From NCBI GenBank assembly GCA_038207395.1, contig JBBQZW010000001.1, forward strand, positions 142,862-206,861: a stretch of 64,000 bases of DNA, read 5' to 3'. This DNA comes from Minisyncoccia bacterium. GTDB taxonomy: Bacteria > Patescibacteriota > Minisyncoccia > Phycocordibacterales > Phycocordibacteraceae. Made by a program: the position numbers and the translations under genes. How positions within the stretch are numbered: the stretch's first letter is position 1; every line of letters begins with the position of its first letter. The notes below the pieces were generated by a model. That model had not been told where the DNA came from and made no database searches. It worked only from the letters and a program-made list of their open reading frames with translations. Positions 3,601-64,000 of this stretch are shown one piece after another.

Positions 3601-3716
3601 TTCTTACGATTAGTAAAAGTACGTTCGCAGGTAGGACATGTTTTTATCTGATCTTTTACCGTCATGTGAAGAGTGTACTATGCACCAATTCAAATCTTCA
3701 TACTGGCTACTATAAG

Positions 3717-3803
3717 CGGAGACGGAGAGATTCGAACTCTCGAGACCCTTTCGAGTCTGCCGCCTTTCCAAGGCGGTGCACTAGACCACTATGCGACGTC
3801 TCC
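3717..3803 (-). tRNA. tRNA-Ser (anticodon GGA), long variable arm. No CCA is encoded.
   Basis: The reverse complement folds as a cloverleaf. The acceptor stem GGAGACG pairs with CGTCTCC. The anticodon stem CCGCC/GGCGG carries loop TTGGAAA, giving anticodon GGA. There is a long extra arm, a T-arm GAGAG-TTCGAAT-CTCTC, and discriminator G. Confidence 0.85.
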
Positions 3804-4818: not shown

Positions 4819-4832
4819 TTACCTGCCAGTTT

Positions 4833-5072
4833 TTACCCTGCAAGCTCAAGGTCTTTTATACGAGTTGAATGATCATCTAGTAGTTCAACAACCGTGTCTA
4901 AACGGTTTTCTACTATAGTTAAACGCTGGTTAACTTCCCGAAAACCTGTTTCTACTCTTTCTTCCAAAAGGCCAACTCTATTTTCCAGCACATCAAATCT
5001 TTTATCTACTGCCAAAAATCCATCTGCTACCATACGCCCAAGGGTATCGAGATCCATATCATCTGTTTCCAT
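4833..5072 (-). CDS. Small hypothetical coiled-coil protein.
   Basis: It is a 79-aa ORF in a tightly packed gene string with no recognisable domain. Confidence 0.3.
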   Translation of the reverse strand: METDDMDLDTLGRMVADGFLAVDKRFDVLENRVGLLEERVETGFREVNQRLTIVENRLDTVVELLDDHSTRIKDLELAG

Positions 5073-51866: not shown

Positions 51867-52346
51867 CTATACTCCCTTCCGGGCAGCCTCAATAGCAGCA
51901 ACGTCAATCTTCTGCATAGTCATCATCGCCGCGAAAGCGCGCGCTCCTTCTTCACCACCTGCTGCAAGGGCATCAGTAAGTGCGCGTGGTGTAATCTGCC
52001 ATGATATTCCCCAACGATCCTTACACCATCCACAATCACTCTCTATCCCCCCATTGCCGACGATGGCATCCCAGTATCGATCCGTCTCCTCTTGATCTTC
52101 TGTTGTTATTTGGAAAGAAAACGCCTCGCTTTGTGGAAACATCGGACCTCCATTAAGTCCGATACACGGAATTCCACATACCGTAAATCCTACCGTCAGC
52201 ACATCTCCCTTCTTTCCACCCGGAAAATCACTTGGCGCATTGAAAACAGAACGTACTGCACTGTCAGGAAATGTAGCTGCATAAAAAGTAGCAGCGTCTA
52301 ATGCGTCTTTTTCAAACCAGAGACAAATAGTATTTTTAGCAATCAT
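51867..52346 (-). CDS. PhnB-like / 3-demethylubiquinone-9 3-methyltransferase-domain protein (VOC superfamily).
   Basis: ICLWFEKDALDAATFYAATFPDS...ISWQI pattern. Confidence 0.65.
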   Translation of the reverse strand: MIAKNTICLWFEKDALDAATFYAATFPDSAVRSVFNAPSDFPGGKKGDVLTVGFTVCGIPCIGLNGGPMFPQSEAFSFQITTEDQEETDRYWDAIVGNGGIESDCGWCKDRWGISWQITPRALTDALAAGGEEGARAFAAMMTMQKIDVAAIEAARKGV

Positions 52347-52626
52347 AGTGTTTGTTTAATTAGCAAGTAATCATACGATACGTATATCAACTATCTAGTG
52401 GGATCACTTATGTATAGCAAAGATTGCTGGATATTCGCCTCATCTCGCACTGTATGTACCTATGCGCCAAATGTGCTGAGTGCGACGCCAAGGTAGTACG
52501 GCCAAAGTATGAGGGCCAATACTCCCTGCCAAAAGGTGAGGCCAACAAATCCAATACTGAACAACCACCCTATTATCCAAAACCCTCCAACAAGTCCGTG
52601 GTGTTCAATCCTCATCATCTCTTTAC

Positions 52627-52863
52627 TCATACGGATGTAGCATGTTGAACCTGCGCAACGGTACCAACGTTTTCTTTTGGAATGATATAGATGGCGATAC
52701 CGTAGGCAATCAATCCAGGAACAAATCCTGTGAATACCACGATAAGAAGCCAGATGAGACGAATAACGACAGGATCCATATCAAAGTACTCGCCTATTCC
52801 ACCACACACACCGGAGATAACCTTACTCTTATCACTCCGATACATCCGTTTATTCATTTTCAT
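52627..52863 (-). CDS. PspC-domain membrane protein.
   Basis: RMYRSDKSKVISGVCGGIGEYF followed by a TM helix. Confidence 0.7.
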   Translation of the reverse strand: MKMNKRMYRSDKSKVISGVCGGIGEYFDMDPVVIRLIWLLIVVFTGFVPGLIAYGIAIYIIPKENVGTVAQVQHATSV

Positions 52864-52985
52864 AGTATAGAGAGTTGTTTAGGCCACCGAAGTGGCTAAG
52901 TGCTTCACCTATACTATACATCTTTATGGTGAGTTTCTGATTAAAATATGCTAGTGTCTGTCCAGACCTGGAATGAGGAGGGGTT

Positions 52986-53528
52986 ATGAATATCGAAAAA
53001 ACTAGCTTCGATAGGTCCCTCAAAAAAGTACGGGGACTCTATCAAAATCATCTTGAAGGAGTGCTCAGCCCATCTAGTTTCACAACTAAGGCACGTACTG
53101 AGTTACATTTCCTTTATATGCAACACACCAGGAATTTGATTGAGAGGACCGCTTCTCGCTTCATCGAAGAGATTCGTTCTTTTCAAGCCCAGTTTGGTCT
53201 TGATCTAGACTGCGACGAAGTATATCTTACTCAAGTGACTCGAGGATATCGTGGTATCCGTGCAAGCCTGCACATCCGTAACAAGGTGTACAAGTATTCT
53301 TCCGGATCAACAGAAGTGTTCATTGGTCCGTTCGATGAATGGGGCAAGATTGCAATACATACGGTTGGTGAGCGAGAGTTTGGAAACCGGCCAAGCCTGT
53401 ATACAAAGAGGAAGAAAAATCGTTGGCAGCAGGTGCAGGAATATAACTTCCCGGATCTACTCCAATGGATAAAGGAAGAGGTTGAACGACCTGAACCTGA
53501 ATTTGACGAAGATGATGTTCCTTTTTAG
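52986..53528 (+). CDS. Hypothetical protein.
   Basis: It is a 180-aa ORF followed by a hairpin terminator at 53534-53577. No domain call. Confidence 0.4.
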   Translation: MNIEKTSFDRSLKKVRGLYQNHLEGVLSPSSFTTKARTELHFLYMQHTRNLIERTASRFIEEIRSFQAQFGLDLDCDEVYLTQVTRGYRGIRASLHIRNKVYKYSSGSTEVFIGPFDEWGKIAIHTVGEREFGNRPSLYTKRKKNRWQQVQEYNFPDLLQWIKEEVERPEPEFDEDDVPF

Positions 53529-53596
53529 AACCGTCCGCCTGAAACCCCTCGCTGGTCTCTCGGCGAGGCGGTTTTTTATAAAGATGTTGGTTGGGG

Positions 53597-53623
53597 GTTT
53601 GGACAGTATTCGAACAAATCTAA
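53597..53623 (-). repeat. Cassette-boundary direct repeat, copy 1 (GTTTGGACAGTATTCGAACAAATCTAA).
   Basis: It is homologous to the copies at 54278, 54895 and 55667, and sits immediately downstream (minus sense) of a terminator hairpin. Confidence 0.7.
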
Positions 53624-53653
53624 TTGCGACTAATCGATGTATAGAAAAAAGGC

Positions 53654-54034
53654 TTACCAGTTCGGTAAGCCTTCAATAAGTAGTAGTTTTGCTAGCTGAT
53701 CAAATATTTCAGCTTCGGCACGCATTTGTGGGATACCATGTCGAATGTAATGTCTTTCATTACCCTTATCCAAGGTCACGAGTGGTAGCAGATGCGCGTG
53801 AAGTTTATCCGCTTTGATTCTAAGGTTCGTAGCGGTGGCTTGTAGTGCTTCCGCTATTTGATTGAAGTTCATTCTGCTTAGTAGCTGCAGTAGATCTTGC
53901 GTCTCTTGAATGGACGTTTCAATCTCTTCGCTCTCTTGTTTGTTCTTTTCCAAATGATGCTGCTGTGCTTCTGCGCCGACAGCTGCAAGCGATAGAATTT
54001 CTTTAACTGAGCGAGGTTCGCATCCTTCAAGCAA
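53654..54034 (-). CDS. Hypothetical protein with a possible HEPN-like Rx4H motif.
   Basis: It is a 126-aa protein carrying NERHYIRHG. The terminator hairpin AAGGCTTACC-agttc-GGTAAGCCTT overlaps its stop. Confidence 0.35.
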   Translation of the reverse strand: MLEGCEPRSVKEILSLAAVGAEAQQHHLEKNKQESEEIETSIQETQDLLQLLSRMNFNQIAEALQATATNLRIKADKLHAHLLPLVTLDKGNERHYIRHGIPQMRAEAEIFDQLAKLLLIEGLPNW

Positions 54035-54070
54035 ATTATCCTCCAGACCAACGATATCCTGTTCTTTGCA

Positions 54071-54271
54071 CTATGCCTCCAATTTGTCGGGATCAATTAT
54101 AGTTGCGATCCATTCATCTTGGTCAAGTGATTCTTGCGCCAGACGTTTAAGCCTTTCGCTTAAAATATGGACAAGATGAGATACAACTTGCTCACGATTT
54201 ATAAACAACATCTTATTTCTCCTGAATTGTACTCTCAAAAGTATTTGAACATTTTGTATTAAAAAAGTCAA
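54071..54271 (-). CDS. Small hypothetical protein (45-66 aa) co-oriented upstream of the HEPN-like gene.
   Basis: The ORF has an alternative start at MLFINREQ near 54211. It is 37 nt upstream of the next gene. Confidence 0.3.
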   Translation of the reverse strand: MTFLIQNVQILLRVQFRRNKMLFINREQVVSHLVHILSERLKRLAQESLDQDEWIATIIDPDKLEA

Positions 54272-54277
54272 TTGTTG

Positions 54278-54308
54278 ACCGTCTGGGACGATATTCGAAC
54301 AATTCTAA
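54278..54308 (-). repeat. Cassette-boundary direct repeat, copy 2 (ACCGTCTGGGACGATATTCGAACAATTCTAA).
   Basis: It matches copy 3 at 26 of 28 positions and is flanked by the palindrome GTCAATTGTTGAC. Confidence 0.75.
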
Positions 54309-54311
54309 ATA

Positions 54312-54352
54312 AGTAAAATAAAAGGCGCCGTACCACAAGGGTCGTGCGCCTT
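54312..54352 (-). terminator. Rho-independent terminator for the 162-aa gene.
   Basis: On the minus strand the hairpin AAGGCGCACGACCCTTGTGGTACGGCGCCTT is followed by TTTTATTTT. Confidence 0.6.
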
Positions 54353-54369
54353 CTACTAAAAATCGAAGA

Positions 54370-54858
54370 TCAAGCCGGGTAGATTTCCGCAACACCGTGA
54401 TCAACGACCACGACGGCAAGCTCAATCATATTCTTGAGTTTTTCGGCAGCCTGAGGGTCGAACGTCTCAAGAACAAGCTGAATGCCTTCGCGCTCCGACA
54501 AGCCGCGTGCGAACGGGACTTCATTCGCATCACGATATACTTGCCAGTTGTGGTTCGGCATCAGCATTTCGGCCAGAGGCGCACCGTGCGGATCATCCAC
54601 GTTGATGAGGGTAATTACAACCTCTTCGGCAGTGAGCCCCCTGATCGCAGCGCGCTCCTTGAAATGAGCAACACGGTCGAGCTGAAGGTTCAGTGTGTTC
54701 TGGCAGTTGTGCTTGCCGACTGCTTGAAACATGGCAAAAGCGGCAGAATCATCGAGCACCAGTTGTCCATCGATTTCGCGGACGACTGATTGAGGTTCCT
54801 GCAAGCCGCCGCTTACTTTCATATCCATATCTACTTTCCTTCTTTTGTTCAAAACCAA
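54370..54858 (-). CDS. Hypothetical protein in a GC-rich cassette.
   Basis: About 150-162 aa with an alternative start at MDMKVSGG. It is GC-rich and has no family call. Confidence 0.4.
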   Translation of the reverse strand: MVLNKRRKVDMDMKVSGGLQEPQSVVREIDGQLVLDDSAAFAMFQAVGKHNCQNTLNLQLDRVAHFKERAAIRGLTAEEVVITLINVDDPHGAPLAEMLMPNHNWQVYRDANEVPFARGLSEREGIQLVLETFDPQAAEKLKNMIELAVVVVDHGVAEIYPA

Positions 54859-54894
54859 AAGAACAATACAATCGTTTATTGAAAATGTCTAGCT

Positions 54895-54925
54895 GGCCGT
54901 CTAGGACGATATTCGAACACATCTC
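54895..54925 (-). repeat. Cassette-boundary direct repeat, copy 3 (GGCCGTCTAGGACGATATTCGAACACATCTC).
   Basis: See copy 2. It abuts the stop codon of the upstream GST-like gene. Confidence 0.75.
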
Positions 54926-54933
54926 CCAACTAT

Positions 54934-55590
54934 CTATGAGGTAGGACTTTCGTTATCTCGAGTATTGAAAGCCAGCTGAGCAGCGAATGCGCGCTTGTAT
55001 GCAGGACGTTCCTCTCCGCGTTTAACATAGGACGCGAGATTTGGATACTCATCTAATATGCCTGACGACCTTACCCTGAGTAGCACAGATATCATCATTA
55101 GATCCCCTGCACTGAATTCAGCTTCAAGCCAGTCTGCATCTCCCAAATATGCAGAGAGTCGCTGTAATCGATCTCGAATTCTATCCATGACTAAAGGAAG
55201 TCGCTCAGGCGTCCACAGCTTATCTCCCTCAGCGAACTTTGCAATCGATAGCTCTAGGATAGGTGGTTCGACAGTATTCAGTGCGGCAAATATCCACGTG
55301 ATAGCTCGTGCTCGCGCAGTACTATCATTCGGTAGAAGACCCGGGTGAGCTTCGGCAATATGAAGTACGATTGATCCCGTTTCAAACAATACTAATTCTC
55401 CTTCTTTGTAGATAGGGATTGAACCAAAAGGCTGAAGTGCTAAATATGCAGATTCCTTTAATGCTTTAAAAGAGACGGGCCGGACTTCATACGATTGGCC
55501 AACTTCCTCAAGAGCCCATCTAACACGAGTATCACGAGCTAGCCCTTTACCGCCATCAGGTGAACGATCAAATGCGCTGATAATAATCAT
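54934..55590 (-). CDS. Glutathione S-transferase family protein (second GST in the window) in a GC-rich cassette.
   Basis: LQPFGSIPIYKEGELVLFETGSIVLHIAE (GST N-domain) and a GST C-terminal-like helical region. Confidence 0.65.
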   Translation of the reverse strand: MIIISAFDRSPDGGKGLARDTRVRWALEEVGQSYEVRPVSFKALKESAYLALQPFGSIPIYKEGELVLFETGSIVLHIAEAHPGLLPNDSTARARAITWIFAALNTVEPPILELSIAKFAEGDKLWTPERLPLVMDRIRDRLQRLSAYLGDADWLEAEFSAGDLMMISVLLRVRSSGILDEYPNLASYVKRGEERPAYKRAFAAQLAFNTRDNESPTS

Positions 55591-55666
55591 ACGAAAAGTA
55601 TATGCTATCGATCAGTTTTTAATAAATCCTCAGGCTCTCAGGACGCACGAAACTAACTCCTAAGTT

Positions 55667-55690
55667 GCTGGCCGTCTCGAGTTCGAACCG
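55667..55690 (-). repeat. Cassette-boundary direct repeat, copy 4 (shortened; GCTGGCCGTCTCGAGTTCGAACCG).
   Basis: It shares GCTGGCCGTCT...TTCGAAC with copy 3 and lies between the RT terminator and the GST-like gene. Confidence 0.55.
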
Positions 55691-55770
55691 TATAGAACCA
55701 AGCCCGGGTTAGTCCGTTTGGTGAGCTGGAGCTAGTCGAGAACGACGCGTCTCGTGCACCTAAGAAAGTT

Positions 55771-55806
55771 ACAAAAGTGACACAGGAATGAGGTTTTGAG
55801 TGTCAC
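55771..55806 (-). terminator. Rho-independent terminator after the DGR reverse transcriptase.
   Basis: On the minus strand the hairpin GTGACAC-(16 nt)-GTGTCAC is followed by TTTTGT. Confidence 0.55.
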
Positions 55807-55821
55807 TTGAATAGTTACACA

Positions 55822-56874
55822 CTATTGTCCTCTTTCCAGAACCTCTTGCACTCGGCCTTTTAATTTCAAGGTATTTCCATGCCTCAATAAGCCCAGATAA
55901 GACTGGATTGTTTCACTCTTAACTCCATTCTCGTGTATAGATTTGAGCATGCGTTTCTTAGTCGTAGTACGCAGAGTCCTGTGGTAAGGAAAATGTACCC
56001 AACCAAGAAAATCTATTCCTGACGATACGGTCGCAATAGAAACCTTCAACGGATGGATGGTAAGTCGTAATCTCTCCATGAGGAATGCTTCAATAAGGGG
56101 AAGTTGCGTTTCAAGCGACGCTCTATCTGAAGAGAGGAGCACAAAATCGTCTGCATAGCGCATATAGTATTTAGCCCTTAACATATGCTTCGCGAAATGA
56201 TCGAACTCGTTCATATATACGTTCACGAGGAGTTGGCTCGTGAGATTCCCGAGCGGTAGTCCGACGCCCTTTCTTGTGGAAGAAAAGCTTTCGATAATTT
56301 GGGACAATAACCAACAGATATCCTCATCTGGAATATAGCTCTGAATAATCGAAGTAAGGATGCCGTGATCTATAGATGCGAAGAATTTTCGGATGTCACA
56401 TTTCAGCACCCACCCCGTCTTTGTATAGTTCTTGGAAACCTTACCAGAGAAACGATTGAATCGTTCGAGGGCTTTATGGACACCTTTATTATCTCGGCAT
56501 GAATAGGAGTCAGCGATAAACGTCCGATCGAAGAACGGATAGAGCTTCCGATACAACGCGTGATGCAGAAGTCGATCACGCACACTCGCCTTATGAATAT
56601 CGCGTGGCTTCGGATCAGATATCTTGAATGCCCAATACTCAGAGTGACGGTAGATCTTGCTAGCAAGGTCGTCTCGGAGTCTCAGAATGTTATCCATGAG
56701 ATTCTCCTCAAATTCCCGCACGTCGGTGCGACTCCGCTTCCCCGAAGCGAACTCACGCCATGCTTCGAGCAGGTTTTCTAGCGAAATGATATCGTGATAG
56801 GAACTACTTGATTGAATTTTATTAGGAACATGGAACGTACCCCCCCCCCGAGACTTTTGCCAGTTATTGAGCAT
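55822..56874 (-). CDS. Diversity-generating retroelement (DGR) reverse transcriptase.
   Basis: 350 aa. It has RT motifs including YADD (MRYADDFVLL) and the DGR-specific LPLGNLTSQLLVNVY motif, which replaces the QGxxxSP of retron and group II RTs. It lies 350 nt from a TR/VR pair with adenine-specific mismatches. Confidence 0.9.
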   Translation of the reverse strand: MLNNWQKSRGGGTFHVPNKIQSSSSYHDIISLENLLEAWREFASGKRSRTDVREFEENLMDNILRLRDDLASKIYRHSEYWAFKISDPKPRDIHKASVRDRLLHHALYRKLYPFFDRTFIADSYSCRDNKGVHKALERFNRFSGKVSKNYTKTGWVLKCDIRKFFASIDHGILTSIIQSYIPDEDICWLLSQIIESFSSTRKGVGLPLGNLTSQLLVNVYMNEFDHFAKHMLRAKYYMRYADDFVLLSSDRASLETQLPLIEAFLMERLRLTIHPLKVSIATVSSGIDFLGWVHFPYHRTLRTTTKKRMLKSIHENGVKSETIQSYLGLLRHGNTLKLKGRVQEVLERGQ

Positions 56875-57204
56875 GCTGTTTCAGTATATAAGCTCTGGTA
56901 TGAGTATCGAGACCATTTCCCAAAGAAATCTCGCTATACGCTGGGCGACCGGATAGACCTAGTTTTCATACAGCTCGTGGAATTGCTGTGGGCAGCAGGG
57001 TACCAGGCGAAAGATGAGAAGCTCCCCACCATAGCAGCCGCGATACGGAAATTAGACGGTCTTAAATTTTTGCTTCGTATTGCGTGGGAAATTCAGATTC
57101 TCGATAGCACGAAGTACGCCTCCCTGTCTGAACCTCTCTTTGAGATCGGGAAGATGCTTGGCGGTTGGCGAAAAGGCATAGAAACGAAAACTCCCACACG
57201 TTAA
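56812..57204 (+). CDS. avd: Accessory variability determinant (Avd)-like four-helix-bundle protein. It is divergent from the RT, its 5' end overlaps it, and the start is uncertain.
   Basis: It resembles the TIGR02436 four-helix-bundle / 23S rRNA IVS protein family (FPKKSRYTLGDRIDLVFIQLVELL ... LSEPLFEIGKMLGGW). It sits between the RT and the TR. Confidence 0.6.
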   Translation: MNFIRNMERTPPPRLLPVIEHAVSVYKLWYEYRDHFPKKSRYTLGDRIDLVFIQLVELLWAAGYQAKDEKLPTIAAAIRKLDGLKFLLRIAWEIQILDSTKYASLSEPLFEIGKMLGGWRKGIETKTPTR

Positions 57205-57227
57205 GTGCGGGAGAACCGTGGGAGTTT

Positions 57228-57340
57228 CGAGAGAACGCTCGATTACCGGCATTCCAGTTGTCATCGTCCAGCTTCCACGTGTTGACGTTCCACTTCCGAT
57301 CGTCGCCGTTCCAGTTGACGTTGACGACATAGCCTGCGAC
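57228..57340 (-). repeat. DGR template repeat (TR), 113 nt.
   Basis: It matches 57686-57798 at 99 of 113 positions. All 14 mismatches fall where the minus strand of this copy has A, so this copy is the adenine-bearing template. An in-frame translation reads AGYVVNVNWNGDDRKWNVNTWKLDDDNWNAGNRAFSRN, rich in AAC codons. Confidence 0.88.
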
Positions 57341-57634
57341 TCTCGTACCTAGCGCCATCTGTGCCACCATCCGTTGAGTACTCTCCGGACTGAATAGTAT
57401 TTGGGACGTCGAAGTCCTCCAGCGTTAGATACCAACTACCAAGATTTTTTATAAAATTCCGGGCGCATGCTTTCTCAAGCCGTAGCCGGAGAGATTCGAG
57501 CCCACGGAATTCCAGAGTCCCTATGCCTAAGCCAATAGCCGAGACATCACCAAGAACTCAATACCAGTATACAAAATAAAAATCCCTCGGATTTCAAAGA
57601 TACAAAGTATCAAAGAGATAAGAGAGATTTCGGT

Positions 57635-57664
57635 GGCGAGTCTGGCCGGATTGCCAGACTCGCC
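57635..57664 (-). other. GC-rich 12-bp stem hairpin 22 nt downstream of the VR (DGR target-recognition hairpin/cruciform candidate).
   Basis: GGCGAGTCTGGC-cggatt-GCCAGACTCGCC, a perfect inverted repeat. Confidence 0.65.
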
Positions 57665-57678
57665 CAAGATGTTCAGGT

Positions 57679-58209
57679 TCAGTTGCGAGAGAACGCTCGA
57701 CCACCGGCATCCCAGTTGACAACGCCCAGCTCCCACGTGTAGACGTCCCACCTCCGACCGCCGCCGTACCAGTTGACGTCGACGACATAGCCTGCGACGT
57801 AGAACAGGTTCGCATAGCCGTTGTTGAGGAGGTCGCCCGCCTCGCCATTGGGTTGCTTGCTGATCATCTGGTCGATGCGAGCGCACAGCTCGGACTCGTC
57901 GAAGATGTAGTCCTCGCCGAGGCCGGGCGTGATCTCGCGATCGTAGGCGTTTTTCGTCAGCTCGCGCGAGATGAGGGTCAACGAGTCGAGGCTTTCGACC
58001 GGCTTCGCCTTCGAGCGCACACGCGACACGAAGTCGTCGGAGACCCAGACACCCTTGCGGGTTTTGAGAGCCGACGGGTCGTAGGTCGCAATGGCGTCGA
58101 GCGAGACACTGTCGTTGATCAGCTTCAGCACAGCAGGCTTGGGAGCCTGCTGTGCTGAAGCTGATTCGGAAGCCCCGAGCGCAGAACGCTCTTGAGATGG
58201 GCTTCCCAC
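57679..58209 (-). CDS. DGR target (variable) protein with a C-terminal VR. The 5' boundary is uncertain: the GTG start has no obvious RBS and the ORF overlaps an upstream ORF.
   Basis: It is a 176-aa ORF whose last ~37 codons are the VR. The alternative-frame Arg-rich ORF 57527..58219 is rejected. Confidence 0.75.
   Translation of the reverse strand: MGSPSQERSALGASESASAQQAPKPAVLKLINDSVSLDAIATYDPSALKTRKGVWVSDDFVSRVRSKAKPVESLDSLTLISRELTKNAYDREITPGLGEDYIFDESELCARIDQMISKQPNGEAGDLLNNGYANLFYVAGYVVDVNWYGGGRRWDVYTWELGVVNWDAGGRAFSRN
57686..57798 (-). repeat. DGR variable repeat (VR), 113 nt, at the extreme C-terminus of the target gene.
   Basis: It is the variable partner of the TR. At the 14 TR-adenine positions it carries G (10 times) or T (4 times). 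It encodes ...AGYVVDVNWYGGGRRWDVYTWELGVVNWDAGGRAFSRN*. Confidence 0.88.
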
Positions 58210-58322
58210 GCCGCGCCATTTTCGCCGGTGAACCGGTTCATGACGTCGAGCGACAGGTTGACTTGGGGTTGGGACAGATTGACCGAAGCCCGCACGAGCG
58301 AGCCGAGCATGTCTTTGGACAT
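58125..58322 (-). CDS. Small ORF with a strong RBS (AAAGGAG-N7-ATG) that overlaps the 5' end of the target ORF. It may be the true N-terminus of a frameshifted target gene or a separate small gene.
   Basis: It reads MSKDMLGSLVRASVNLSQ.... An 85-nt out-of-frame overlap with the 176-aa ORF spans a 19-bp perfect palindrome. Confidence 0.35.
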   Translation of the reverse strand: MSKDMLGSLVRASVNLSQPQVNLSLDVMNRFTGENGAAWEAHLKSVLRSGLPNQLQHSRLPSLLC

Positions 58323-58547
58323 GGTCTATTCTCCTTTAGGGAGCACGCTGTACAACGAATTCGGATGGTTCCCGATTCGCCACAGCAGGAGGAGCCCTAA
58401 AATAAGGCGCTTTCTGCTGTGGCGAACTGCAACTGAATATCAAGGAACTAGTCTGTACCACTTTATCACGATATGATGATAAAGTCAAGTAGCACGCGAC
58501 TCTTTTTAGTCTACACGCGGCAATGGGGTTAGAAACTCATAAGACTG

Positions 58548-58949
58548 TTGAAATGGGCTTATAATTACGCTATGCCAAAGAAACGCGTCGTCATTCTCAC
58601 AGATTTAGCCCTTCACACTCGGGCTGGCCAGCCTACGGCGAGTTTTGCACGTGCTGAGGAGAAGGCTATAGCTGAAAACAAGCTTGGACGTGTGTATGGA
58701 AAGCTCGCTAAGCCAAAGCCCGAAGATATAGACGAGAAGACCCATACGATTAAATTCCGTATTGATCTCCCACCAGACCTAATGGAACAAGTGCAGAGGG
58801 GCGAAGTAGAACTTGCCATGCCCGAAGGAGGGCTGCCTATTTATGTTGGGAAAGATACTCAGGAATTCATGCAGAACATGAATCGCAAGGAGCGTCGACG
58901 CCAGCAATTCAAGAAACACGGCACGAAGACTTGGCGGCCAAAAAGGTAG
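58548..58949 (+). CDS. Hypothetical basic protein (phage-associated region). The probable start is near 58572.
   Basis: No domain call. It is the first plus-strand gene of the phage-like module. Confidence 0.35.
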   Translation: MKWAYNYAMPKKRVVILTDLALHTRAGQPTASFARAEEKAIAENKLGRVYGKLAKPKPEDIDEKTHTIKFRIDLPPDLMEQVQRGEVELAMPEGGLPIYVGKDTQEFMQNMNRKERRRQQFKKHGTKTWRPKR

Positions 58950-59102: not shown

Positions 59103-60386
59103 ATGAATAAACTATCTTGGACAACAATCCAAAAACGCGTAAACGATCTGATTCCCCAGGAGATCAACCCTCGCAAGATCACCGACAAACAAATGTCGGA
59201 CCTGAAGCGAAGCCTTAAGAAGTTCAATCTGGTGGAAATCCCCGCCGTGGATTATGACGGCACGATATTAGCAGGACATCAGCGTATCAAGGCTCTCCAG
59301 CTTCTTGGTCGCGGAGATGAGATGATCGACATCCGAGTACCTAATCGCAAACTAACCGAGAAAGAGTCTAAGGAATACCTGATCGGCTCCAACAAACTTG
59401 GTGGAGATTGGGACTTCGACATTCTGAAATCATTTGAACTCGATACGCTCTCGTTCGCAGGATTCGACGACCTTGAGCTTTCTAAGTTCTGGGACACTGA
59501 TAACGAAACTAAGGAGGACGCGTTCGACGTTGAGAAGGAGTTGAAGAAGATCATAGAACCGAAGACAAAGCTCGGTGACATTATTCGTCTTGGTAATCAC
59601 AAGATTCTTTGTGGCGACTCGACTGACCCGAAGAATCTTGCACGGCTTCTAGGGAGCGAACGCGCCAGCATGATCTACTCAGATCCCGTCTACAACATCT
59701 CTATCGACTACGACGGAGGCATTGGCGGTAAGAAGGATTACGGAGGAAACGTAAACGACACGCGCACCTACGAGGAATACAAGACTTTCATCAAGGAAAG
59801 CCTCGCTGCCGCGCTCGCCGTAGCAGACCCCAACACCCATATCTTCTACTACTGTGATCAGGTCTATATTGGCTTGATACAGGAAATTTACCGATCGCTC
59901 GGCATCGCTAACAAGCGGGTGTGCCTGTGGCTCAAGAACTCACAGAACCCAGTGCCGAAGGTGTACTGCAACAAGGCATATGAACCAGCCGTATACGGCA
60001 CGCGTGGAAGACCATACCTCGCGGAAGCCGTAAGCAATCTCAACGAGGTTATGAACAAGGAGTTCGGTACGGGAAACGAGCTTGTGGCGCAGGTGGACGA
60101 CTTCCTCGAGATCTGGACGGCAAAGCGACTTGCCGCGAAGGACTACAAGCACGCGACCTCAAAGCCGATCACACTCCACGAGAAAGCCATAAAGCGATGT
60201 ACCAGACCAAACGAAATCATTCTCGATAGCTTCCTGGGTTCAGGCAGTACCCTGCTTGCCGGAGAACAGCTTGGACGACGCGTGTACGGATGTGAGCTTG
60301 AGCCACGCTTCTGCGACCTAATCGCGATTAGGTTCGAGGCACTTACTGGAACCAAGCCAGTCATCGAACACCATGAAAAAGAATAA
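59103..60386 (+). CDS. ParB-like nuclease domain fused to an N6/N4 DNA methyltransferase (phage-type).
   Basis: ParB N-domain (INPRKITDKQMSDLKRSLKKFNLVEIPAV), methyltransferase motif IV SDPVY and motif I ILDSFLGSGST. Confidence 0.8.
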   Translation: MNKLSWTTIQKRVNDLIPQEINPRKITDKQMSDLKRSLKKFNLVEIPAVDYDGTILAGHQRIKALQLLGRGDEMIDIRVPNRKLTEKESKEYLIGSNKLGGDWDFDILKSFELDTLSFAGFDDLELSKFWDTDNETKEDAFDVEKELKKIIEPKTKLGDIIRLGNHKILCGDSTDPKNLARLLGSERASMIYSDPVYNISIDYDGGIGGKKDYGGNVNDTRTYEEYKTFIKESLAAALAVADPNTHIFYYCDQVYIGLIQEIYRSLGIANKRVCLWLKNSQNPVPKVYCNKAYEPAVYGTRGRPYLAEAVSNLNEVMNKEFGTGNELVAQVDDFLEIWTAKRLAAKDYKHATSKPITLHEKAIKRCTRPNEIILDSFLGSGSTLLAGEQLGRRVYGCELEPRFCDLIAIRFEALTGTKPVIEHHEKE

Positions 60387-60849
60387 ATTCCAGAAGCAGT
60401 TCTTGGACGAACTGCGGAAAGTACCGATCGTTCAAGTTGCGTGCGAGAAGACCGGCTTGTCTCGCAACAGTATCTATCGCTGGCGTAACGAAGATGCAGA
60501 GTTCCGCAAAGCTATGGAGGAAGCAATCGCCGAGGGTGAGGAACTTGTAAATGATATGAGTGAGGGTCAGCTACTCACACTTATCAAAGAGAAGAACTGG
60601 TCAGCGATTAGCTTCTGGCTTCGTAAGCGCAATCCCAAGTTCAAGGATCGCCTAGAGGTGGAAGTTGCACCTAAGCAAGAAGAACTCACGGAGGAACAGG
60701 AAGAGACTGTGCGTGAAGCTCTTCGACTTGCCTCTATGGATCCAACTATTAACCCTGTAACAGAAATCGACCATGGAACAGAACCCATTACCGACGCACC
60801 TGATGGAAACGATGCTGAAGGATCGGAAGGTCCGAACAGCGATCACTAA
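60373..60849 (+). CDS. Putative terminase small subunit (HTH).
   Basis: HTH segment ACEKTGLSRNSIYRWR and an acidic C-terminus. It is immediately upstream of and overlaps the large terminase gene. Confidence 0.5.
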   Translation: MKKNKFQKQFLDELRKVPIVQVACEKTGLSRNSIYRWRNEDAEFRKAMEEAIAEGEELVNDMSEGQLLTLIKEKNWSAISFWLRKRNPKFKDRLEVEVAPKQEELTEEQEETVREALRLASMDPTINPVTEIDHGTEPITDAPDGNDAEGSEGPNSDH

Positions 60850-62245
60850 AGAGAGCCATTGGTACTTCTTCCATTTCTACTTCGCTCACTATGTGAAGTA
60901 CCCGACCGCTCCTTTTCAAAAGGAGTTTATGGGGCTTTCAGAGCGCGAAGACGTGAAGAATCTCGTTGTGGTGGCCTTTCGCGGATCGGCGAAATCGACC
61001 ATCTTCACCATGTCCTATCCGATCTGGGCCATCCTCGGAAAGCAGCAAAAGAAATTCATTGTCATCCTGTCGCAAACACAGGCGCAAGCGAAACAGCATA
61101 TGATGAACCTTAGGCGTGAGCTTGAGGGTAATCCACTTCTCAAGAACGACCTCGGACCATTCCAAGAGGAGCGCAATGAATGGGGTGCAACTTCCCTTGT
61201 GTTCGGAAGGCATGGTGCTCGTATTACCGCCGTCTCAACGGAGCAGAGTGTTCGCGGCCTGCGTCATAATCAGCACCGGCCTGATCTCATAATAGGAGAC
61301 GACCTTGAAGATATTGCTTCCACAAAGACACGAGAGGGGCGTAATAAGACCTACGAGTGGCTAACGGGTGAAGTGATTCCTGCCGGAGACCGAAACACGC
61401 GCCTTATCGTGATCGGAAACCTTCTGCATGAGGATTCTCTCATTATGCGTCTACGCGAGGATATTGAGGGTAAAAGGATCGATGGAATGTTCAAAGCGTA
61501 TCCCCTTCTCGAAGGTCAGAAGATCTTATGGCCTGGAAAGTATCCGACAATGGAGGATATCGAGGAAGAGCAACGGAAAGCGGCAAACGATTACGCATGG
61601 CAACGCGAGTATCTTCTCAACATTGTTCCTGCGGAAGATCAGGTTATTGATCCGGCATGGATCCATTACTACGACGAGATTCCACCGCGCGTGCGGGTTT
61701 ATAGCGATGAGACTTACATGACGAATCTTGAAGTACGCATTGGTGTTGATCTGGCTATCTCGAAGCGCGATACCGCAGACTACACCGCGATGGTGCCAGC
61801 CCTCCTATACGAAAGGAAGAAGGGCTACGACATATACATTCTTCCGAAAATCATCAATAAGCGACTCTCATTCCCCGAAACTGTTGAGACGTGCAAGGTG
61901 ATAAACCAGTCGTACAAAGAGATCAAGGAATGGAACGGACCGGTGTTCGTGATTGAGGACGTAGCGTATCAAAGCGCCCTTCCCCAGCAGCTGAAGGCTG
62001 AAGGGCTCAGACAAATACACACAGTAAAACCGGGCAATGTAGATAAGCGCGCACGACTTATGCTGACCGCTAACCTTATCAAGACAGGAGTCGTAAAGTT
62101 TCCACGGCAAGGAGCCGAGCAATTAATTCAGCAGATAGTCCATTTCGGTGTTGAGAAACATGACGACCTTGCGGATGCATTCTCAGCTCTCGTCTTGGAC
62201 GCGATTGCAGAGCCTCCAAGAACCTTCCGGATCTTTATGCTCTAG
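60773..62245 (+). CDS. Phage terminase large subunit.
   Basis: Walker A AFRGSAKST, Walker B LIIGDDLED, and a C-terminal nuclease-like domain. 490 aa. Confidence 0.85.
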   Translation: MEQNPLPTHLMETMLKDRKVRTAITKESHWYFFHFYFAHYVKYPTAPFQKEFMGLSEREDVKNLVVVAFRGSAKSTIFTMSYPIWAILGKQQKKFIVILSQTQAQAKQHMMNLRRELEGNPLLKNDLGPFQEERNEWGATSLVFGRHGARITAVSTEQSVRGLRHNQHRPDLIIGDDLEDIASTKTREGRNKTYEWLTGEVIPAGDRNTRLIVIGNLLHEDSLIMRLREDIEGKRIDGMFKAYPLLEGQKILWPGKYPTMEDIEEEQRKAANDYAWQREYLLNIVPAEDQVIDPAWIHYYDEIPPRVRVYSDETYMTNLEVRIGVDLAISKRDTADYTAMVPALLYERKKGYDIYILPKIINKRLSFPETVETCKVINQSYKEIKEWNGPVFVIEDVAYQSALPQQLKAEGLRQIHTVKPGNVDKRARLMLTANLIKTGVVKFPRQGAEQLIQQIVHFGVEKHDDLADAFSALVLDAIAEPPRTFRIFML

Positions 62246-62277
62246 AGCAATTATTAGCGAACAGTAAGGCGATATAA

Positions 62278-62793
62278 CTAGTTCGTCTGCTCAACCGTAA
62301 CCTGCCAATTAATTCCACTTATAACCTGAACGAAGTAACGGCCGGGCTTGAGACTACGATACGTCGTCTGACCCTTACCTGCTTCTGATCCCTCAGTCAT
62401 TATAGAGAGACCTGGGCCAGTATATCCACCGTCTTCTTTCTCAAGACTGATGGCGGTATAGCTTCCTACCGATGAGCCTGTAGTGGTAGCAGTAATACGA
62501 ACCTTGTCACTTGTAACATCGAACGATTCACTATTCTGATTCCCCTTTCCTTTAAGGGTGTTAACTTGTGTCCAAAGCTCTTCCTTTGGAGCGGCGTTAT
62601 TTGCAGTACTTCCACTCGTTGAGTCTTTCGAGCCACCGAGTGATCCGATAAGTATGAGAACAAGAATTGCGTACACTACGAACATTCTCTTCTTCAGGTA
62701 CCACTTCTTTTCTGGCTTCTGCCCGTTTACTTCTTGAGACATATATAAGTTGTTGGTTCGGTTTTCTTCTAATCTCCCGATGGCCAGATACAC
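62278..62793 (-). CDS. Hypothetical membrane-anchored protein. The probable start is near 62742.
   Basis: TM anchor, then a Ser/Thr/Gly-rich soluble domain. Confidence 0.35.
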   Translation of the reverse strand: MYLAIGRLEENRTNNLYMSQEVNGQKPEKKWYLKKRMFVVYAILVLILIGSLGGSKDSTSGSTANNAAPKEELWTQVNTLKGKGNQNSESFDVTSDKVRITATTTGSSVGSYTAISLEKEDGGYTGPGLSIMTEGSEAGKGQTTYRSLKPGRYFVQVISGINWQVTVEQTN

Positions 62794-63086
62794 AAAAATC
62801 CCGCCACCAGGAGGACCCTTGCGGGTATCCCTACCTAAGTTTCCCTAGGTAACCGAACCAACGACCCTGATGACGGGGTTTTTACGTTGGTTTGGGTTTT
62901 CGACCATATCCTTTGAAATCAAAGGGGTTAGGCCATTTCTATTCAATTGTCCGTAATATGGTTGCCCCTACTACCTCTTCATAAGATGGCAGTCCGGTTG
63001 TTCTGCTAAGCCCTCCACGACCATGCTACGAATCACTAGTTTTGCATAGACTATGCATCATCCCCTGGTCTGGCATCAATTAATAG

Positions 63087-63389
63087 GTGGAGGACAGGGA
63101 CGAAATAGTAGATAAAGCAGCCCATTACCGTTTTACGAAGGAAGCCGATAGTGCTTATCTGAATAGGATTTCCCTACTTCCAAATTCTAAGAAGGATCTG
63201 AAGAGAGCGATCTTGGAAAGAATTGAGGTCTTGGTTACCGCCTATAGCTCTCTTGCGAGCTACGTGCCAGACGAGCTGATTGATTGGCTCAATTCGCACC
63301 AAGGAAGCGATAAGAGCAAGAAGGTGTATTTAGGCGTACTTCGGGATATGGAAAAGCTTCGGGTAGAAGCTTTGAGCAAATTGAAATAA
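63087..63389 (+). CDS. Hypothetical protein.
   Basis: It is a 100-aa ORF directly upstream of the recombinase gene. Confidence 0.35.
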   Translation: MEDRDEIVDKAAHYRFTKEADSAYLNRISLLPNSKKDLKRAILERIEVLVTAYSSLASYVPDELIDWLNSHQGSDKSKKVYLGVLRDMEKLRVEALSKLK

Positions 63390-63404
63390 TCTTTATGAAA
63401 ACTT

Positions 63405-64000
63405 TAGAAACTTCTCAGATTGGGTTATCACCCACAATTATTGAAGAGAAAATCAAATACTGTCTGTACGCTCGTAAATCGACTGAATCAGATGAGAAAC
63501 AGGCTCTTTCGATTGAGTCTCAGATAAAGGAAATGCTTCAGATAGCTGAACGAGAAAACCTGGATATAGCAGATATTAGACGAGAGTCGCATTCAGCTAA
63601 AGATTCAGGACAACGCCCCGTCTATCAGGAACTATTGGAAGACATCCGGCGACAACGATTCAACGCCATTCTAACGTGGGCACCTGACCGATTAAGTAGA
63701 AATGCTGGAGACCTAGGAACACTCGTAGATCTCATGGATCAAAAGCTCCTCCTAGAGATTCGCACGTATGGACAACATTTTAGGAATTCCCCTAACGAAA
63801 AGTTTCTTCTAATGATTCTTTGCTCCCAAGCAAAACTTGAGAACGATAATAAGAGTATCAATGTTAAGAGGGGTCTAAAGACACGAGTAGAGATGGGACT
63901 TCTGCCCGGACGCGCGCCAACTGGTTATCTAAAGGAGCAGCGAATGGACAGGAAGTGCGAAAGTATCCTAGACCCTGACCGAGCCATGGTTATAAAGAAG
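63405..64000 (+). CDS. Serine recombinase (resolvase/large-serine-integrase N-terminal catalytic domain), 5' partial. It continues past the window end.
   Basis: Hand translation gives CLYARKSTESDEKQALSIESQIKEM (the catalytic Ser context) and ...RGLKTRVEMGLLPGRAPTGY. It is not in the ORF track because it is truncated. Confidence 0.75.

Follow-up and report, generated by a model that had tools for sequence, protein, structure and literature searches.

Genes and repeats of the array

The stretch of DNA analysed here (64,000 nucleotides, referred to as the window) is part of contig JBBQZW010000001.1 (assembly GCA_038207395.1, positions 142,862 to 206,861) from a Minisyncoccia bacterium. It contains four co-oriented copies (A to D) of a short repeat, which bound three small gene cassettes on the minus strand. 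From the left boundary of the first cassette onwards, the features are:

55667-55693, minus strand: copy D, a shortened variant, in gene sense ATACGGTTCGAACTCGAGACGGCCAGC; left boundary of the first cassette, abutting the DGR/phage-like region.
54934-55590, minus strand: gene of cassette 1, glutathione S-transferase (GST) family, 218 aa.
54892-54918, minus strand: copy C, full motif, in gene sense GTTCGAATATCGTCCTAGACGGCCAGC; 3' end of cassette 1, followed at once by the promoter-like TAGACA-17-TATTGT.
54370-54858, minus strand: gene of cassette 2, a 162-aa hypothetical protein, followed by a hairpin plus T-run terminator at about 54323-54352, as read from the sequence.
54274-54300, minus strand: copy B, full motif, in gene sense GTTCGAATATCGTCCCAGACGGTCAAC; 3' end of cassette 2, followed by AATTGACTTTT, a -35 TTGACT leader shared with many cassettes in other genomes.
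53654-54211, minus strand: genes of cassette 3, a 46-aa ORF (54211-54071, preceded by AGGAGA) and a 126-aa ORF (54034-53654) with an Rx4H motif, then a terminator at 53674-53648.
53589-53615, minus strand: copy A, a degenerate terminal copy, in gene sense GTTCGAATACTGTCCAAACCCCCAACC; 3' end of cassette 3 and last copy of the array, lying between two convergent terminators with no gene following it.

A preliminary description, made from the sequence alone, had reported four co-oriented repeat copies at cassette boundaries, and this observation is confirmed, with coordinates that agree to within 1-6 nt. Copies B and C are near-perfect. They are identical at 27 of 31 positions (26 of 28 had been given before) and score E = 4e-13 and 3e-12, respectively, against a profile of 37 copies from other genomes. 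Copies A and D are degenerate. Copy A matches the consensus at 19 of 27 positions (E 0.15 in a search of ~0.3 Mb), while copy D is about 5 nt shorter and retains GTTCGAA and the right-hand 11 nt AGACGGCCAGC, which are identical to the consensus (E 0.9). Both are found on the right strand and in the right intergenic gaps, so they are probably real, but they would not stand alone. From GTTCGAAC onward, copy D has the 22-nt layout of a tRNA 3' end (T-loop 7, T-stem 5, acceptor 7, then GC) when compared with the tRNA-Gln genes of other loci; that it is a displaced tRNA-Gln 3' fragment is an inference. As a control for chance, the 16-mer core with up to 3 mismatches occurs 3 times in 64 kb, with 0.65 expected, and the 17-mer right part occurs 2 times, with 0.10 expected. 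No copies occur elsewhere in the window.

The palindrome GTCAATTGTTGAC that had been noted next to a repeat is present beside copy B. It consists of the right end of the motif, mutated to GGTCAAC, plus a TTGACT -35 box. The terminators next to copies A and B are likewise confirmed. The claim that the array is a GC-rich island fails: the array has 45.3% GC and the window 45.8%, and only the gene for the 162-aa protein (52.4%) and the DGR/phage region at 57.0-62.3 kb (50.8%) are GC-richer.

The GST assignment rests on Pfam GST_N (8.6e-10) and GST_C_2 (3.1e-05, just under its gathering score, 24.4 against 24.9 bits), with below-cutoff NCBIfam GST hits. The 162-aa protein matched no family. The 126-aa ORF had been called HEPN-like, but this rests only on an Rx4H motif seen by eye: there is no Pfam or PADLOC hit, and only an NCBIfam Tla1 match far below cutoff (15.7 bits against a 200-bit cutoff). 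No profile hit passes any curated threshold for cassette 3, and its interpretation as a toxin-antitoxin pair is a guess. NCBIfam and PADLOC searches of the unannotated ORFs of the window returned nothing useful. A similarity search of 50-64 kb against phage records gave no match, and in a plasmid comparison only the GST gene matched, distantly. Rfam 15 gave no match at E up to 1 in 52300-58600, and ARAGORN finds only a tRNA-Ser at 3716-3803 in the window. Look-ups of exact copies of GST, BacA, the large terminase and a 100%-identical ATPase did not extend the view beyond the window.

Distribution and conservation of the motif

In gene sense, the 27-34-nt element reads TARATTY-GTTCGAATATCGTCCCAGACGGCCAGC. 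The pattern GTCTNGGACGATATTCGAAC (19 specified bases, about 4 chance hits expected in 596 Gb) gave 38 matches in 27 genome loci, of which 26 are from named Patescibacteria (CPR) lineages and one is from an unclassified "bacterium". A further 32 loci came from metagenomes, giving 59 loci in addition to the window; motif-rich samples include Hainich groundwater (ERZ1292623) and the JGI samples behind loci L040/L043. The lineages include Paceibacterota/Parcubacteria, Saccharibacteria, Adlerbacteria and Minisyncoccia. Positions that were not required by the search (GGCCAGC and the upstream A.ATT) are 85-97% conserved. Three pattern scans of viral contigs gave only chance-like hits, either core-only or inside high-GC coding DNA, and no phage or plasmid attP form was found in these scans.

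Altogether, 112 copies were collected in 61 loci. Of these loci, 27 have at least 2 copies, and none has mixed strands. Spacings are 227-4400 nt (median about 700 nt), apart from one overlapping split pair (26 nt), and the spacers contain genes, which does not correspond to a CRISPR array with its short (about 30-40 nt) non-coding spacers. A tRNA-Gln gene lies upstream on the same strand in 23 of the 59 scan loci (12 genome, 11 metagenome), and no other tRNA type is adjacent. The other 36 loci do not show a tRNA-Gln in the DNA fetched, which was 2-20 kb per locus. One additional locus found through DUF1761 (L075) shows the same arrangement, but two of three independently sampled tRNA-Gln lineages have no motif within 10 kb.

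Genes upstream of the tRNA are syntenic core genes (prfB, ftsE, ftsX, pyrG, metK, DUF1761), while the downstream genes are nearly all singletons. Of 30 locus pairs with 64-89% upstream DNA identity, only 1 shares at least 100 nt downstream. Otherwise, the only shared downstream DNA is the motif itself, at 91-100% identity. Cassette genes are an accessory mix (NUDIX, alpha/beta hydrolases, GNAT, methyltransferases, DJ-1, HAD, GST). The same cassette occurs with different neighbours: c10 (166 aa) is bounded by motifs on both sides in locus L044 and in loci L024/L040, with homology running from the upstream motif to the end of the downstream motif, and the cassette order is shuffled between L001 and L018/L023.

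The motif is closely tied to the preceding gene. The distance from stop codon to motif has a median of 28 nt, and 28 of 71 are within 8 nt, while the distance from motif to next start codon has a median of 83 nt and a range of 0-611. In 25% of copies, a gene on the opposite strand follows. Boxes resembling -35/-10 directly follow many copies, and terminators precede them, but these are consensus matches only. DNA right after tRNA-Gln "...GCAGC" in one genome is homologous, in register, to DNA right after the motif "...CCAGC" in another: 16 pairs of tRNA-Gln flank and motif flank from different genomes score at least 16, with 0.2 expected from shuffles, and the alignments start at the first base after CAGC (for example L018/L052, with a score of 28 over 35 nt).

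No recombinase, transposase or HUH gene was found in or beside any array, although the screens were crude and covered only 2-20 kb per locus. A six-frame box II screen (H.LRH) of the window and ORF screens of the 59 loci detected no IntI-type tyrosine recombinase, and the 25 families with most members (of 93 matched), as listed for 127 cassette-zone ORFs, include no integrase. The serine recombinase at about 63.4 kb had been named beforehand as a candidate enzyme to be tested for co-occurrence with the motif, and it is not linked to it. None of the 59 other loci encodes a Ser or Tyr recombinase in the DNA fetched. Loci with two homologues of this recombinase (71-76% identical over the N-terminal 200 aa; two distinct contexts, L065-L072) have no motif and no tRNA-Gln within 10 kb, and a 67%-identical homologue is found in a tRNA-Gln island that lacks the motif.

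A proposed cassette system

We interpret the repeat as the conserved 3'-terminal recombination site of a family of small mobile gene cassettes found across Patescibacteria, a reading in which we have moderate confidence. In this view, each cassette is its own transcription unit, with a putative promoter or leader, one or a few genes, often a terminator, and then TARATTY-GTTCGAATATCGTCCCAGACGGCCAGC. Cassettes would stack head to tail, all in one orientation, downstream of the tRNA-Gln gene, with the junction exactly after the final CAGC, so that the 3' end of tRNA-Gln (...GCAGC) and the end of any resident motif (...CCAGC) serve equally as the left boundary of the next cassette. The right 15 nt of the motif resemble tRNA-Gln positions 60-74. 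A cassette would be cut out and rejoined at CAGC| by a site-specific enzyme supplied in trans, and inserted at tRNA-Gln or at another motif, which would turn over the cassette content while keeping the site. Conservation is found only on the 5' side of the junction, which is unusual for tyrosine and serine recombinases, and a small dyad (CGTC-CCA-GACG) is located 6 nt before it. Because of this, a nicking HUH-type enzyme (relaxase, Rep or IS91-like) fits at least as well as a classical recombinase. In the window, the anchoring tRNA-Gln is not in view; it is predicted beyond the DGR/phage-like element to the right of 55.7 kb, with the 3' end ...GGTTCGAACTCGAGACGGCCAGC.

The conservation and co-orientation of the motif, its anchoring at tRNA-Gln, the precise in-register junctions, the occurrence of one cassette in different neighbourhoods and the hypervariable content are documented by the comparisons, while active excision and integration, as well as the enzyme, are inferred. 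No excised circle, no empty versus occupied site in near-identical strains and no other direct sign of movement was seen, and the 24 contigs that carry one identical DUF1761 protein all had the same neighbourhood. Several copies are split or hybrid, with breakpoints near the motif centre, and a junction at CAGC does not explain these.

The interpretation given in the preliminary description is thus supported in part. The repeat is not a plain promoter, CRISPR, REP or attC, it marks cassette boundaries (including one after the last gene with nothing following), and the comparative data favour a recombination or attachment-type site in an integron-like array with no integrase in view. The GC-rich island and the link to the serine recombinase are not supported, and the operator and MITE readings do not fit the geometry. 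It had not been recognized that the genes are on the minus strand, so that the motif is the 3' end of each cassette, that the motif is conserved across the Candidate Phyla Radiation, and that the arrays are anchored at tRNA-Gln.

It is tempting to speculate that CPR bacteria possess their own cassette-capture platform, an integron analogue anchored at the 3' end of tRNA-Gln. Cassettes with putative promoters would end in an unstructured 27-34-nt site that mimics the tRNA-Gln 3' end, would be cut and joined exactly after CAGC by a trans-acting enzyme that reads only the 5' side of the junction (possibly HUH-type), and would be exchanged between distant CPR phyla. This remains tentative, but if true it would be a new class of site-specific gene-mobility system and a main route of accessory-gene flow in these reduced genomes. 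CPR bacteria make up a large share of bacterial diversity, with genomes of about 1 Mb, and how they gain and swap accessory genes is poorly understood. A single short signal that marks hypervariable arrays at one tRNA gene would provide a simple sequence tag for finding their flexible gene pool in metagenomes, a testable mechanism for gene flow between lineages, a possible explanation for assembly breaks at these loci, and a candidate landing pad for genetic tools in the few culturable Saccharibacteria. If the enzyme proves to be new, it adds a cassette system beside integrons. Literature searches for the sequence itself and for CPR cassettes, integrons or tRNA islands found no description.

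Alternative explanations

The strongest of the alternatives, which we nevertheless consider unlikely, is that the repeats are passive scars, i.e., attR-type partial tRNA-Gln copies left by serial integration of integrase-carrying elements (phages, tycheposon-like islands) that then decayed to their cargo genes. The arrays are found next to tRNA-Gln, the right 15 nt of the motif match the tRNA-Gln 3' end at 10-11 of 15 positions, and two copies only, copy D and one in another locus (L020:4779), have the exact 22-nt layout of a tRNA 3' end. Elements with a large serine recombinase lie in or beside such islands in this window and in the L076 lineage, and islands with scattered partial tRNAs are described for Prochlorococcus (10.1101/2020.12.28.424599). 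However, the motif is 5 nt longer than a tRNA 3' end and does not copy the resident tRNA-Gln, and its local alignment to tRNA-Gln ends is barely better than to other tRNAs (mean 8.9 against 7-10). Decaying scars would not be more conserved between genomes than the core DNA around them, the units are single genes with precise in-register ends, and no integrase remnants were seen in the 59 loci.

Two further readings are both improbable. The motif might be a transcription signal (operator, activator site or insulator) bound by a conserved CPR regulator that co-regulates accessory genes, its spread with cassettes being secondary. Many copies lie directly upstream of -35/-10-like boxes (CAGC-AATTGACT..., and the box pair after copy C), and the left part reads GTTC-N7-GTCC, a direct repeat about one helical turn apart that recalls alphaproteobacterial LexA boxes. 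On the other hand, the distance to the next start codon is not fixed, the register to the -35 box differs between leader families, one quarter of copies face a convergent gene or a terminator, and terminal copies such as copy A have nothing to regulate. The motif is much more tightly tied to the upstream stop codon, 27-34 nearly invariant asymmetric bases are far more than a typical operator needs, and copies are confined to one array per locus. Alternatively, no dedicated enzyme may be involved, with the motif and the tRNA-Gln gene (76-96% identical between genomes) serving as short portable homology anchors, so that RecA-dependent recombination swaps, deletes or inserts the DNA between them after natural DNA uptake. 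Identity is near-perfect and roughly uniform over about 27 nt, which is close to the minimal length for efficient homologous recombination in E. coli, copies are strictly co-oriented, no recombinase was found, and CPR bacteria are thought to depend on DNA uptake. Yet 27 bp is a very poor substrate in most bacteria, and homologous exchange would not give a junction exactly after CAGC at the tRNA, where the shared identity is only 4-5 nt. In secondary copies, the core CGTCCCAGAC is 80-100% conserved while positions 4-9 are 45-85% conserved, which looks like protein recognition.

Comparison with known systems

Integron arrays (attI/attC/IntI) are likewise head-to-tail, co-oriented arrays of small, mostly single-gene cassettes of miscellaneous accessory function (GNAT, NUDIX, GST, possible toxin-antitoxin). 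In both, the conserved site is at the 3' end of each cassette, often touching the stop codon, the number of sites equals the number of cassettes, the last site abuts non-cassette DNA, and cassette content and order differ between relatives. A distinct fixed site heads the array, attI plus Pc in integrons and the tRNA-Gln 3' end here. No IntI or any tyrosine recombinase was seen, however, and the site is a nearly invariant, unstructured 27-34-mer rather than an imperfect palindrome (R''-L''...L'-R') with conserved structure: the motif and the window copies fold no better than shuffles (z -0.15 to +0.5; one copy reaches -2.1 through its flanks), so that the integron mechanism does not apply. While integron cassettes are promoterless and expressed from a common Pc, those described here have promoter-like boxes and often terminators of their own.

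Prochlorococcus tycheposons (10.1101/2020.12.28.424599) also form a variable island at a fixed tRNA gene in a streamlined genome, with directly oriented repeats resembling a tRNA 3' end and new material thought to enter at the tRNA and to push older material outward. They carry their own tyrosine or large serine recombinase and replication genes, are several kb long, and their repeats are true copies of the resident tRNA. Here, the units are about 0.3-2 kb and carry no mobility genes, and the repeat is a fixed 27-mer that differs from the resident tRNA-Gln and is shared across phyla.

HUH-enzyme sites (oriT nic sites with TrwC-type oriT-specific recombination and integration, rolling-circle dso, IS91/ISCR ends) require sequence essentially on the 5' side of a precise cut and have a small inverted repeat a few nt upstream of it. 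Initiation at one site and termination at the next co-oriented site would release exactly one unit, without target duplication. This is a mechanistic analogy only, as no HUH protein was identified and the dyad is only 4 bp. The pdif modules of Acinetobacter plasmids (XerC/D sites) are small autonomous gene modules bounded by a repeated site of about 28 bp, but pdif sites have an 11-6-11 dyad and flank modules in inverted orientation, while the arms of the motif show no dyad by inspection of the consensus and all copies are direct. Phage morons and the promoter-stem-loop (PeSL) shuffling cassettes of T4-type phages are promoter-gene-terminator units shuffled between genomes, but morons have no conserved boundary site. 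Neither pdif modules nor these phage units are tRNA-anchored. REP/BIME repeats are palindromic and dispersed genome-wide, whereas the window has 4 copies within 2.1 kb and none elsewhere in 64 kb, without a significant palindrome.

Several other identities were rejected. The motif is not a tRNA or tmRNA gene, as it cannot form a T-arm (G53:A61 mismatch, non-complementary upstream sequence). IS200/IS605-type guide pairing between the cleavage tetranucleotide and the bases 5' of the hairpin is absent, and no feature supports a replication Ter site, dif or parS. GCCGTCTG resembles the Neisseria DNA uptake sequence (DUS), but the copy density is far too low. Co-variation between the right end of the motif and the acceptor stem of the resident tRNA-Gln was seen only in L010 (GACGGGCAGC against tRNA ...TCGGGCAGC) and not in 10 other genomes. 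An age gradient of copy quality along the arrays was also dropped: in a sample that is biased by how loci were found, the best copy was distal in 7 arrays and proximal in 4.

Array and its surroundings

Three gene units on the minus strand occupy the region 53.5-55.7 kb, and four co-oriented copies of one sequence sit in the gaps. The genes and the copies (27-mers, with coordinates given on the plus strand) are arranged as follows.

55667-55693: copy D, about 5 nt shorter than the others, retaining GTTCGAA and AGACGGCCAGC
55590-54934, minus strand: a GST-family gene (cassette 1)
54892-54918: copy C
54858-54370, minus strand: a gene for a 162-aa hypothetical protein (cassette 2)
54274-54300: copy B
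54211-53654, minus strand: a 46-aa ORF plus a 126-aa ORF
53589-53615: copy A, a diverged copy (19/27)

Read in gene sense, copies B and C are GTTCGAATATCGTCC(C/T)AGACGG(T/C)CA(A/G)C. The repeats reported in the preliminary description are confirmed. The core occurs nowhere else in the 64 kb: the left 16-mer, with up to 3 mismatches, was observed 3 times against 0.65 expected, and the right 17-mer 2 times against 0.10 expected. In gene sense, each copy follows the previous gene, in two cases after its terminator, and precedes the promoter-like boxes of the next. Copy A follows the last gene and lies between two convergent terminators. The claim that the array forms a GC-rich island did not hold, as the array has 45.3% GC against 45.8% for the window. 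Only the gene for the 162-aa protein (52.4%) and the DGR/phage-like stretch at 57.0-62.3 kb (50.8%) stand out. A 20-nt stretch spanning the start codon, the first coding bases and the bases just upstream is 90% identical between the GST gene (55584-55603) and a PF06983 gene just beyond the array (52368-52387; sense ATATAC(G/T)T(A/T)TCGT-ATGATTA).

The window is chromosomal DNA of a CPR/Patescibacteria bacterium. Housekeeping membrane genes (VanY, TerC, DedA, BacA) run up to 51.4 kb. A P-type ATPase at 35.8-38.4 kb is 100% identical to a protein encoded on a 268-kb NCBI contig, and its homologues that carry an organism name are from Patescibacteria lineages, apart from a few labelled only "bacterium". 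The PF06983 gene (51867-52346, minus strand; 3-demethylubiquinone-9 3-methyltransferase / PhnB-like) is about 75% identical at the DNA level to genes lying next to, or a few kb beyond, motif arrays in other CPR genomes (loci L011, L021, L024/L043, L062 and L063; L numbers denote the loci retrieved for comparison). It may be older island content. No motif copy flanks it in the window.

To the right of copy D lies a complete diversity-generating retroelement (DGR; 55822-58219, minus strand), which is followed by a phage- or satellite-like block (59103-64000). Their components are listed below.

56874-55822: reverse transcriptase (RT; RVT_1, 2.4e-21)
57223-57340: template repeat (TR)
57370-57062: 102-aa ORF overlapping the template repeat, which may be the accessory Avd
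57681-57798: variable repeat (VR), inside the target gene
58219-57527: 230-aa target gene
58118-58165: perfect 22-nt inverted repeat with a 4-nt loop, inside the 5' part of the target gene
58376-58426: second, imperfect 24-nt inverted repeat, about 250 nt upstream
59103-60386: DNA methylase
60373-60849: small-terminase-like HTH protein
60773-62245: large-terminase-like protein
63395 onward: serine recombinase, cut by the window end

All 15 mismatches between the template and variable repeats fall at TR adenines. Homologues of the recombinase are 65-88% identical over the N-terminal 200 aa across many CPR classes, and many of them sit at contig ends, which suggests a widespread CPR mobile element.

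Conservation of the motif across the CPR

A scan of one genome per species (596 Gb) for GTCTNGGACGATATTCGAAC, for which about 4 chance hits are expected, returned 38 matches in 27 loci. Of these, 26 are from named Paceibacterota/Parcubacteria, Saccharibacteria, Adlerbacteria, Minisyncoccia or "Patescibacteria group", and one is from an unclassified "bacterium". A metagenome scan gave 32 more loci, while viral contigs gave only chance-like hits. Bases that were not required by the search are conserved too: GGCCAGC after the core is 85-97% conserved, and a TAR-ATT-Y signature is found upstream. Among 35 non-identical secondary copies that were not selected by the search, the most constrained parts are GTTC and CGTCCCAGACGGCCAGC, whereas positions 4-9 vary (GAATAT, TAATAT, CAACAT).

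A profile search finds 112 copies in 61 loci. Of these loci, 27 have 2-7 copies, and none mixes strands. Spacing ranges from 227 to 4400 nt, with a median of about 700 nt, apart from one overlapping split pair (26 nt). Many metagenome and MAG contigs end within about 350 nt of a motif copy, and two end within or right at one (contig ends in L011, L033, L038, L042, L045, L050, L054, L055 and L060). This would be expected if populations differ in the neighbouring cassette and assemblies break there.

Anchoring at tRNA-Gln and variable content

In 23 of the 59 scan loci, a tRNA-Gln gene (CTG; TTG in one) lies 0.1-7 kb upstream of the copies on the same strand. No other tRNA type is adjacent. Upstream of the tRNA, the genes form a syntenic core block (prfB, ftsE, ftsX, pyrG, metK and DUF1761). 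In two genomes, a LAGLIDADG-domain ORF sits immediately upstream of tRNA-Gln, between the core block and the tRNA (L015 3573-4229; L022 1864-2532). Downstream, almost every gene is a singleton among loci. Of 30 locus pairs whose upstream DNA aligns at 64-89% identity, only one shares at least 100 nt downstream. In the rest, the only shared downstream DNA is the motif itself, 27-34 nt at 91-100% identity.

The 127 ORFs scanned from the arrays are an accessory mix, which includes NUDIX, alpha/beta hydrolases, DUF2200, HAD, methyltransferases, GNAT, DJ-1, SDR and ParB-like proteins. Of the 132 array ORFs called, 80% share the orientation of the motif. A two-gene module, consisting of an HNH-repeat protein and a ParB_N/HTH_ParB protein, recurs as a motif-bounded cassette in two genomes (L016 3171-5281; L018 5626-7724).

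A small sample independent of the motif was drawn through the DUF1761 gene next to tRNA-Gln. One lineage has an array with tRNA-Gln upstream on the same strand (L075, GTTCGGAT variant), while two lineages have none within 10 kb. The system is thus widespread but not universal. In one motif-less lineage (L076-L083), the tRNA-Gln island carries a 450-aa large serine recombinase next to a type I restriction-modification system and a ThsB-TIR gene, making a defence island (about 15.1-20.4 kb in L076).

The motif as the 3' end of a cassette

The motif is tied to the upstream gene. The distance from stop codon to motif has a median of 28 nt; 28 of 71 are within 8 nt, and the commonest arrangement is TAR-ATTY-GTTC. 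In contrast, the distance to the next start codon is loose (median 83, range 0-611), and one copy in four faces an opposite-strand gene or a terminator.

The same cassette appears in different neighbourhoods with motifs on both sides. The 166-aa c10 cassette (its ORF has no separate annotation) occurs in L044 and in Saccharibacteria L024/L040, and homology starts in the upstream motif and ends at the last base of the downstream motif. Two further cassettes, X and Y, are adjacent in L001, but in L018/L023 they are in the reverse order with a third cassette between them.

The most telling result concerns the flanks. The sequence immediately 3' of tRNA-Gln ...GCAGC in one genome is homologous, from the first base, to the sequence immediately 3' of a motif ...CCAGC in another genome. 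There are 16 such pairs that score at least 16, against 0.2 expected from shuffles. They fall into at least four unrelated leader families, for example L018/L052 (score 28 over 35 nt), L044/L014, L076/L054 and L027/L019. Thus, the tRNA-Gln 3' end and the motif are interchangeable left boundaries. The junction falls exactly after CAGC, and conservation lies only on its 5' side.

When anchored at that end, the last 15 nt of the motif (TCCCAGACGGCCAGC) match tRNA-Gln positions 60-74 (TCCTAGTCCCGCAGC or TCCAAGTCCGGCAGC) at 10-11 of 15 positions. Overall, the motif looks like a tRNA-Gln 3' end with 5 extra nt after a T-loop-like GTTCGAAT. It cannot, however, fold as a T-arm, and a plain local alignment to tRNA-Gln ends is only slightly better than to other tRNAs.

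Proposed mechanism and alternatives

The simplest reading is site-specific recombination of cassettes at CAGC|, for which tRNA-Gln would serve as the fixed entry site and the terminal motif of each cassette as a further site. While the conservation, anchoring and junctions of the motif are observed in the sequences, the recombination itself and an enzyme for it are inferred. Functionally, this would be an integron-like platform. The preliminary interpretation as an integron-like array is supported in part. It is not an integron, however: no IntI or other tyrosine recombinase was seen in crude screens of the motif loci, the site does not fold, and the cassettes bring their own putative promoters. 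The serine recombinase near the window end, which the preliminary description had named as a candidate enzyme, is not supported. No motif locus was found to carry one in crude screens of the retrieved DNA, and loci retrieved with two of its homologues (two distinct contexts) lack the motif and tRNA-Gln within 10 kb. A 67%-identical homologue sits in a motif-less tRNA-Gln island. One-sided conservation and a 4-bp dyad (CGTC-CCA-GACG) 6 nt before the junction recall the nic sites of HUH enzymes, but this is only an analogy.

We found no Rfam family, no paper containing the sequence, and no description of CPR cassette arrays or tRNA-Gln islands. The closest published analogue is the picture of tRNA-anchored islands and tycheposons in Prochlorococcus. 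The arrays combine features of two known kinds of structure, integron-like cassette arrays and tRNA-anchored islands. If a dedicated enzyme acts on the motif, it may well be a new system.

In this light, copies C and B of the window are intact sites ending cassettes 1 and 2, and copy A is the decayed terminal site next to core DNA. Copy D has the exact 22-nt layout of a tRNA 3' end (GTTCGAAC / TCGAG / ACGGCCA / GC). It may be the original tRNA-Gln 3' fragment, displaced when the DGR/phage-like element integrated into the tRNA, and this would predict an intact tRNA-Gln beyond 64 kb.

The repeats might instead be passive att scars of decayed integrase-bearing elements, which would fit the tRNA anchoring and copy D. 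This does not fit a non-tRNA 27-mer that is held at 91-100% identity while core DNA is only 64-89% identical, nor single-gene units with exact ends, nor the absence of integrase remnants in the 59 loci screened. A RecA homology anchor would explain the uniform identity and the lack of an enzyme, but neither the exact junction at the tRNA, where only 4-5 nt are shared, nor the position-specific conservation. An operator or promoter element fails on geometry, given the loose spacing to the next start codon and the copies that face an opposite-strand gene or a terminator.

Several copies are not explained by a junction at CAGC, being split or hybrid with breakpoints near the motif centre. Examples are L010 2946/3001 (a 54-nt insert; the region extends over 2946-3030), L010 3963 (3963-4001) and L007 6286 (...CGT|ACCACACCCCACC); L001 3727 and 4828-4890 also belong to this group. 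Among these copies, the left half is followed by ACCAC(AC...) in three places, one motif is interrupted by 54 nt, and one has AGACGG duplicated 22 nt apart. These could be footprints of a second kind of event at the motif centre. Window copy A and L001:3727 share TGTCCAAACC.
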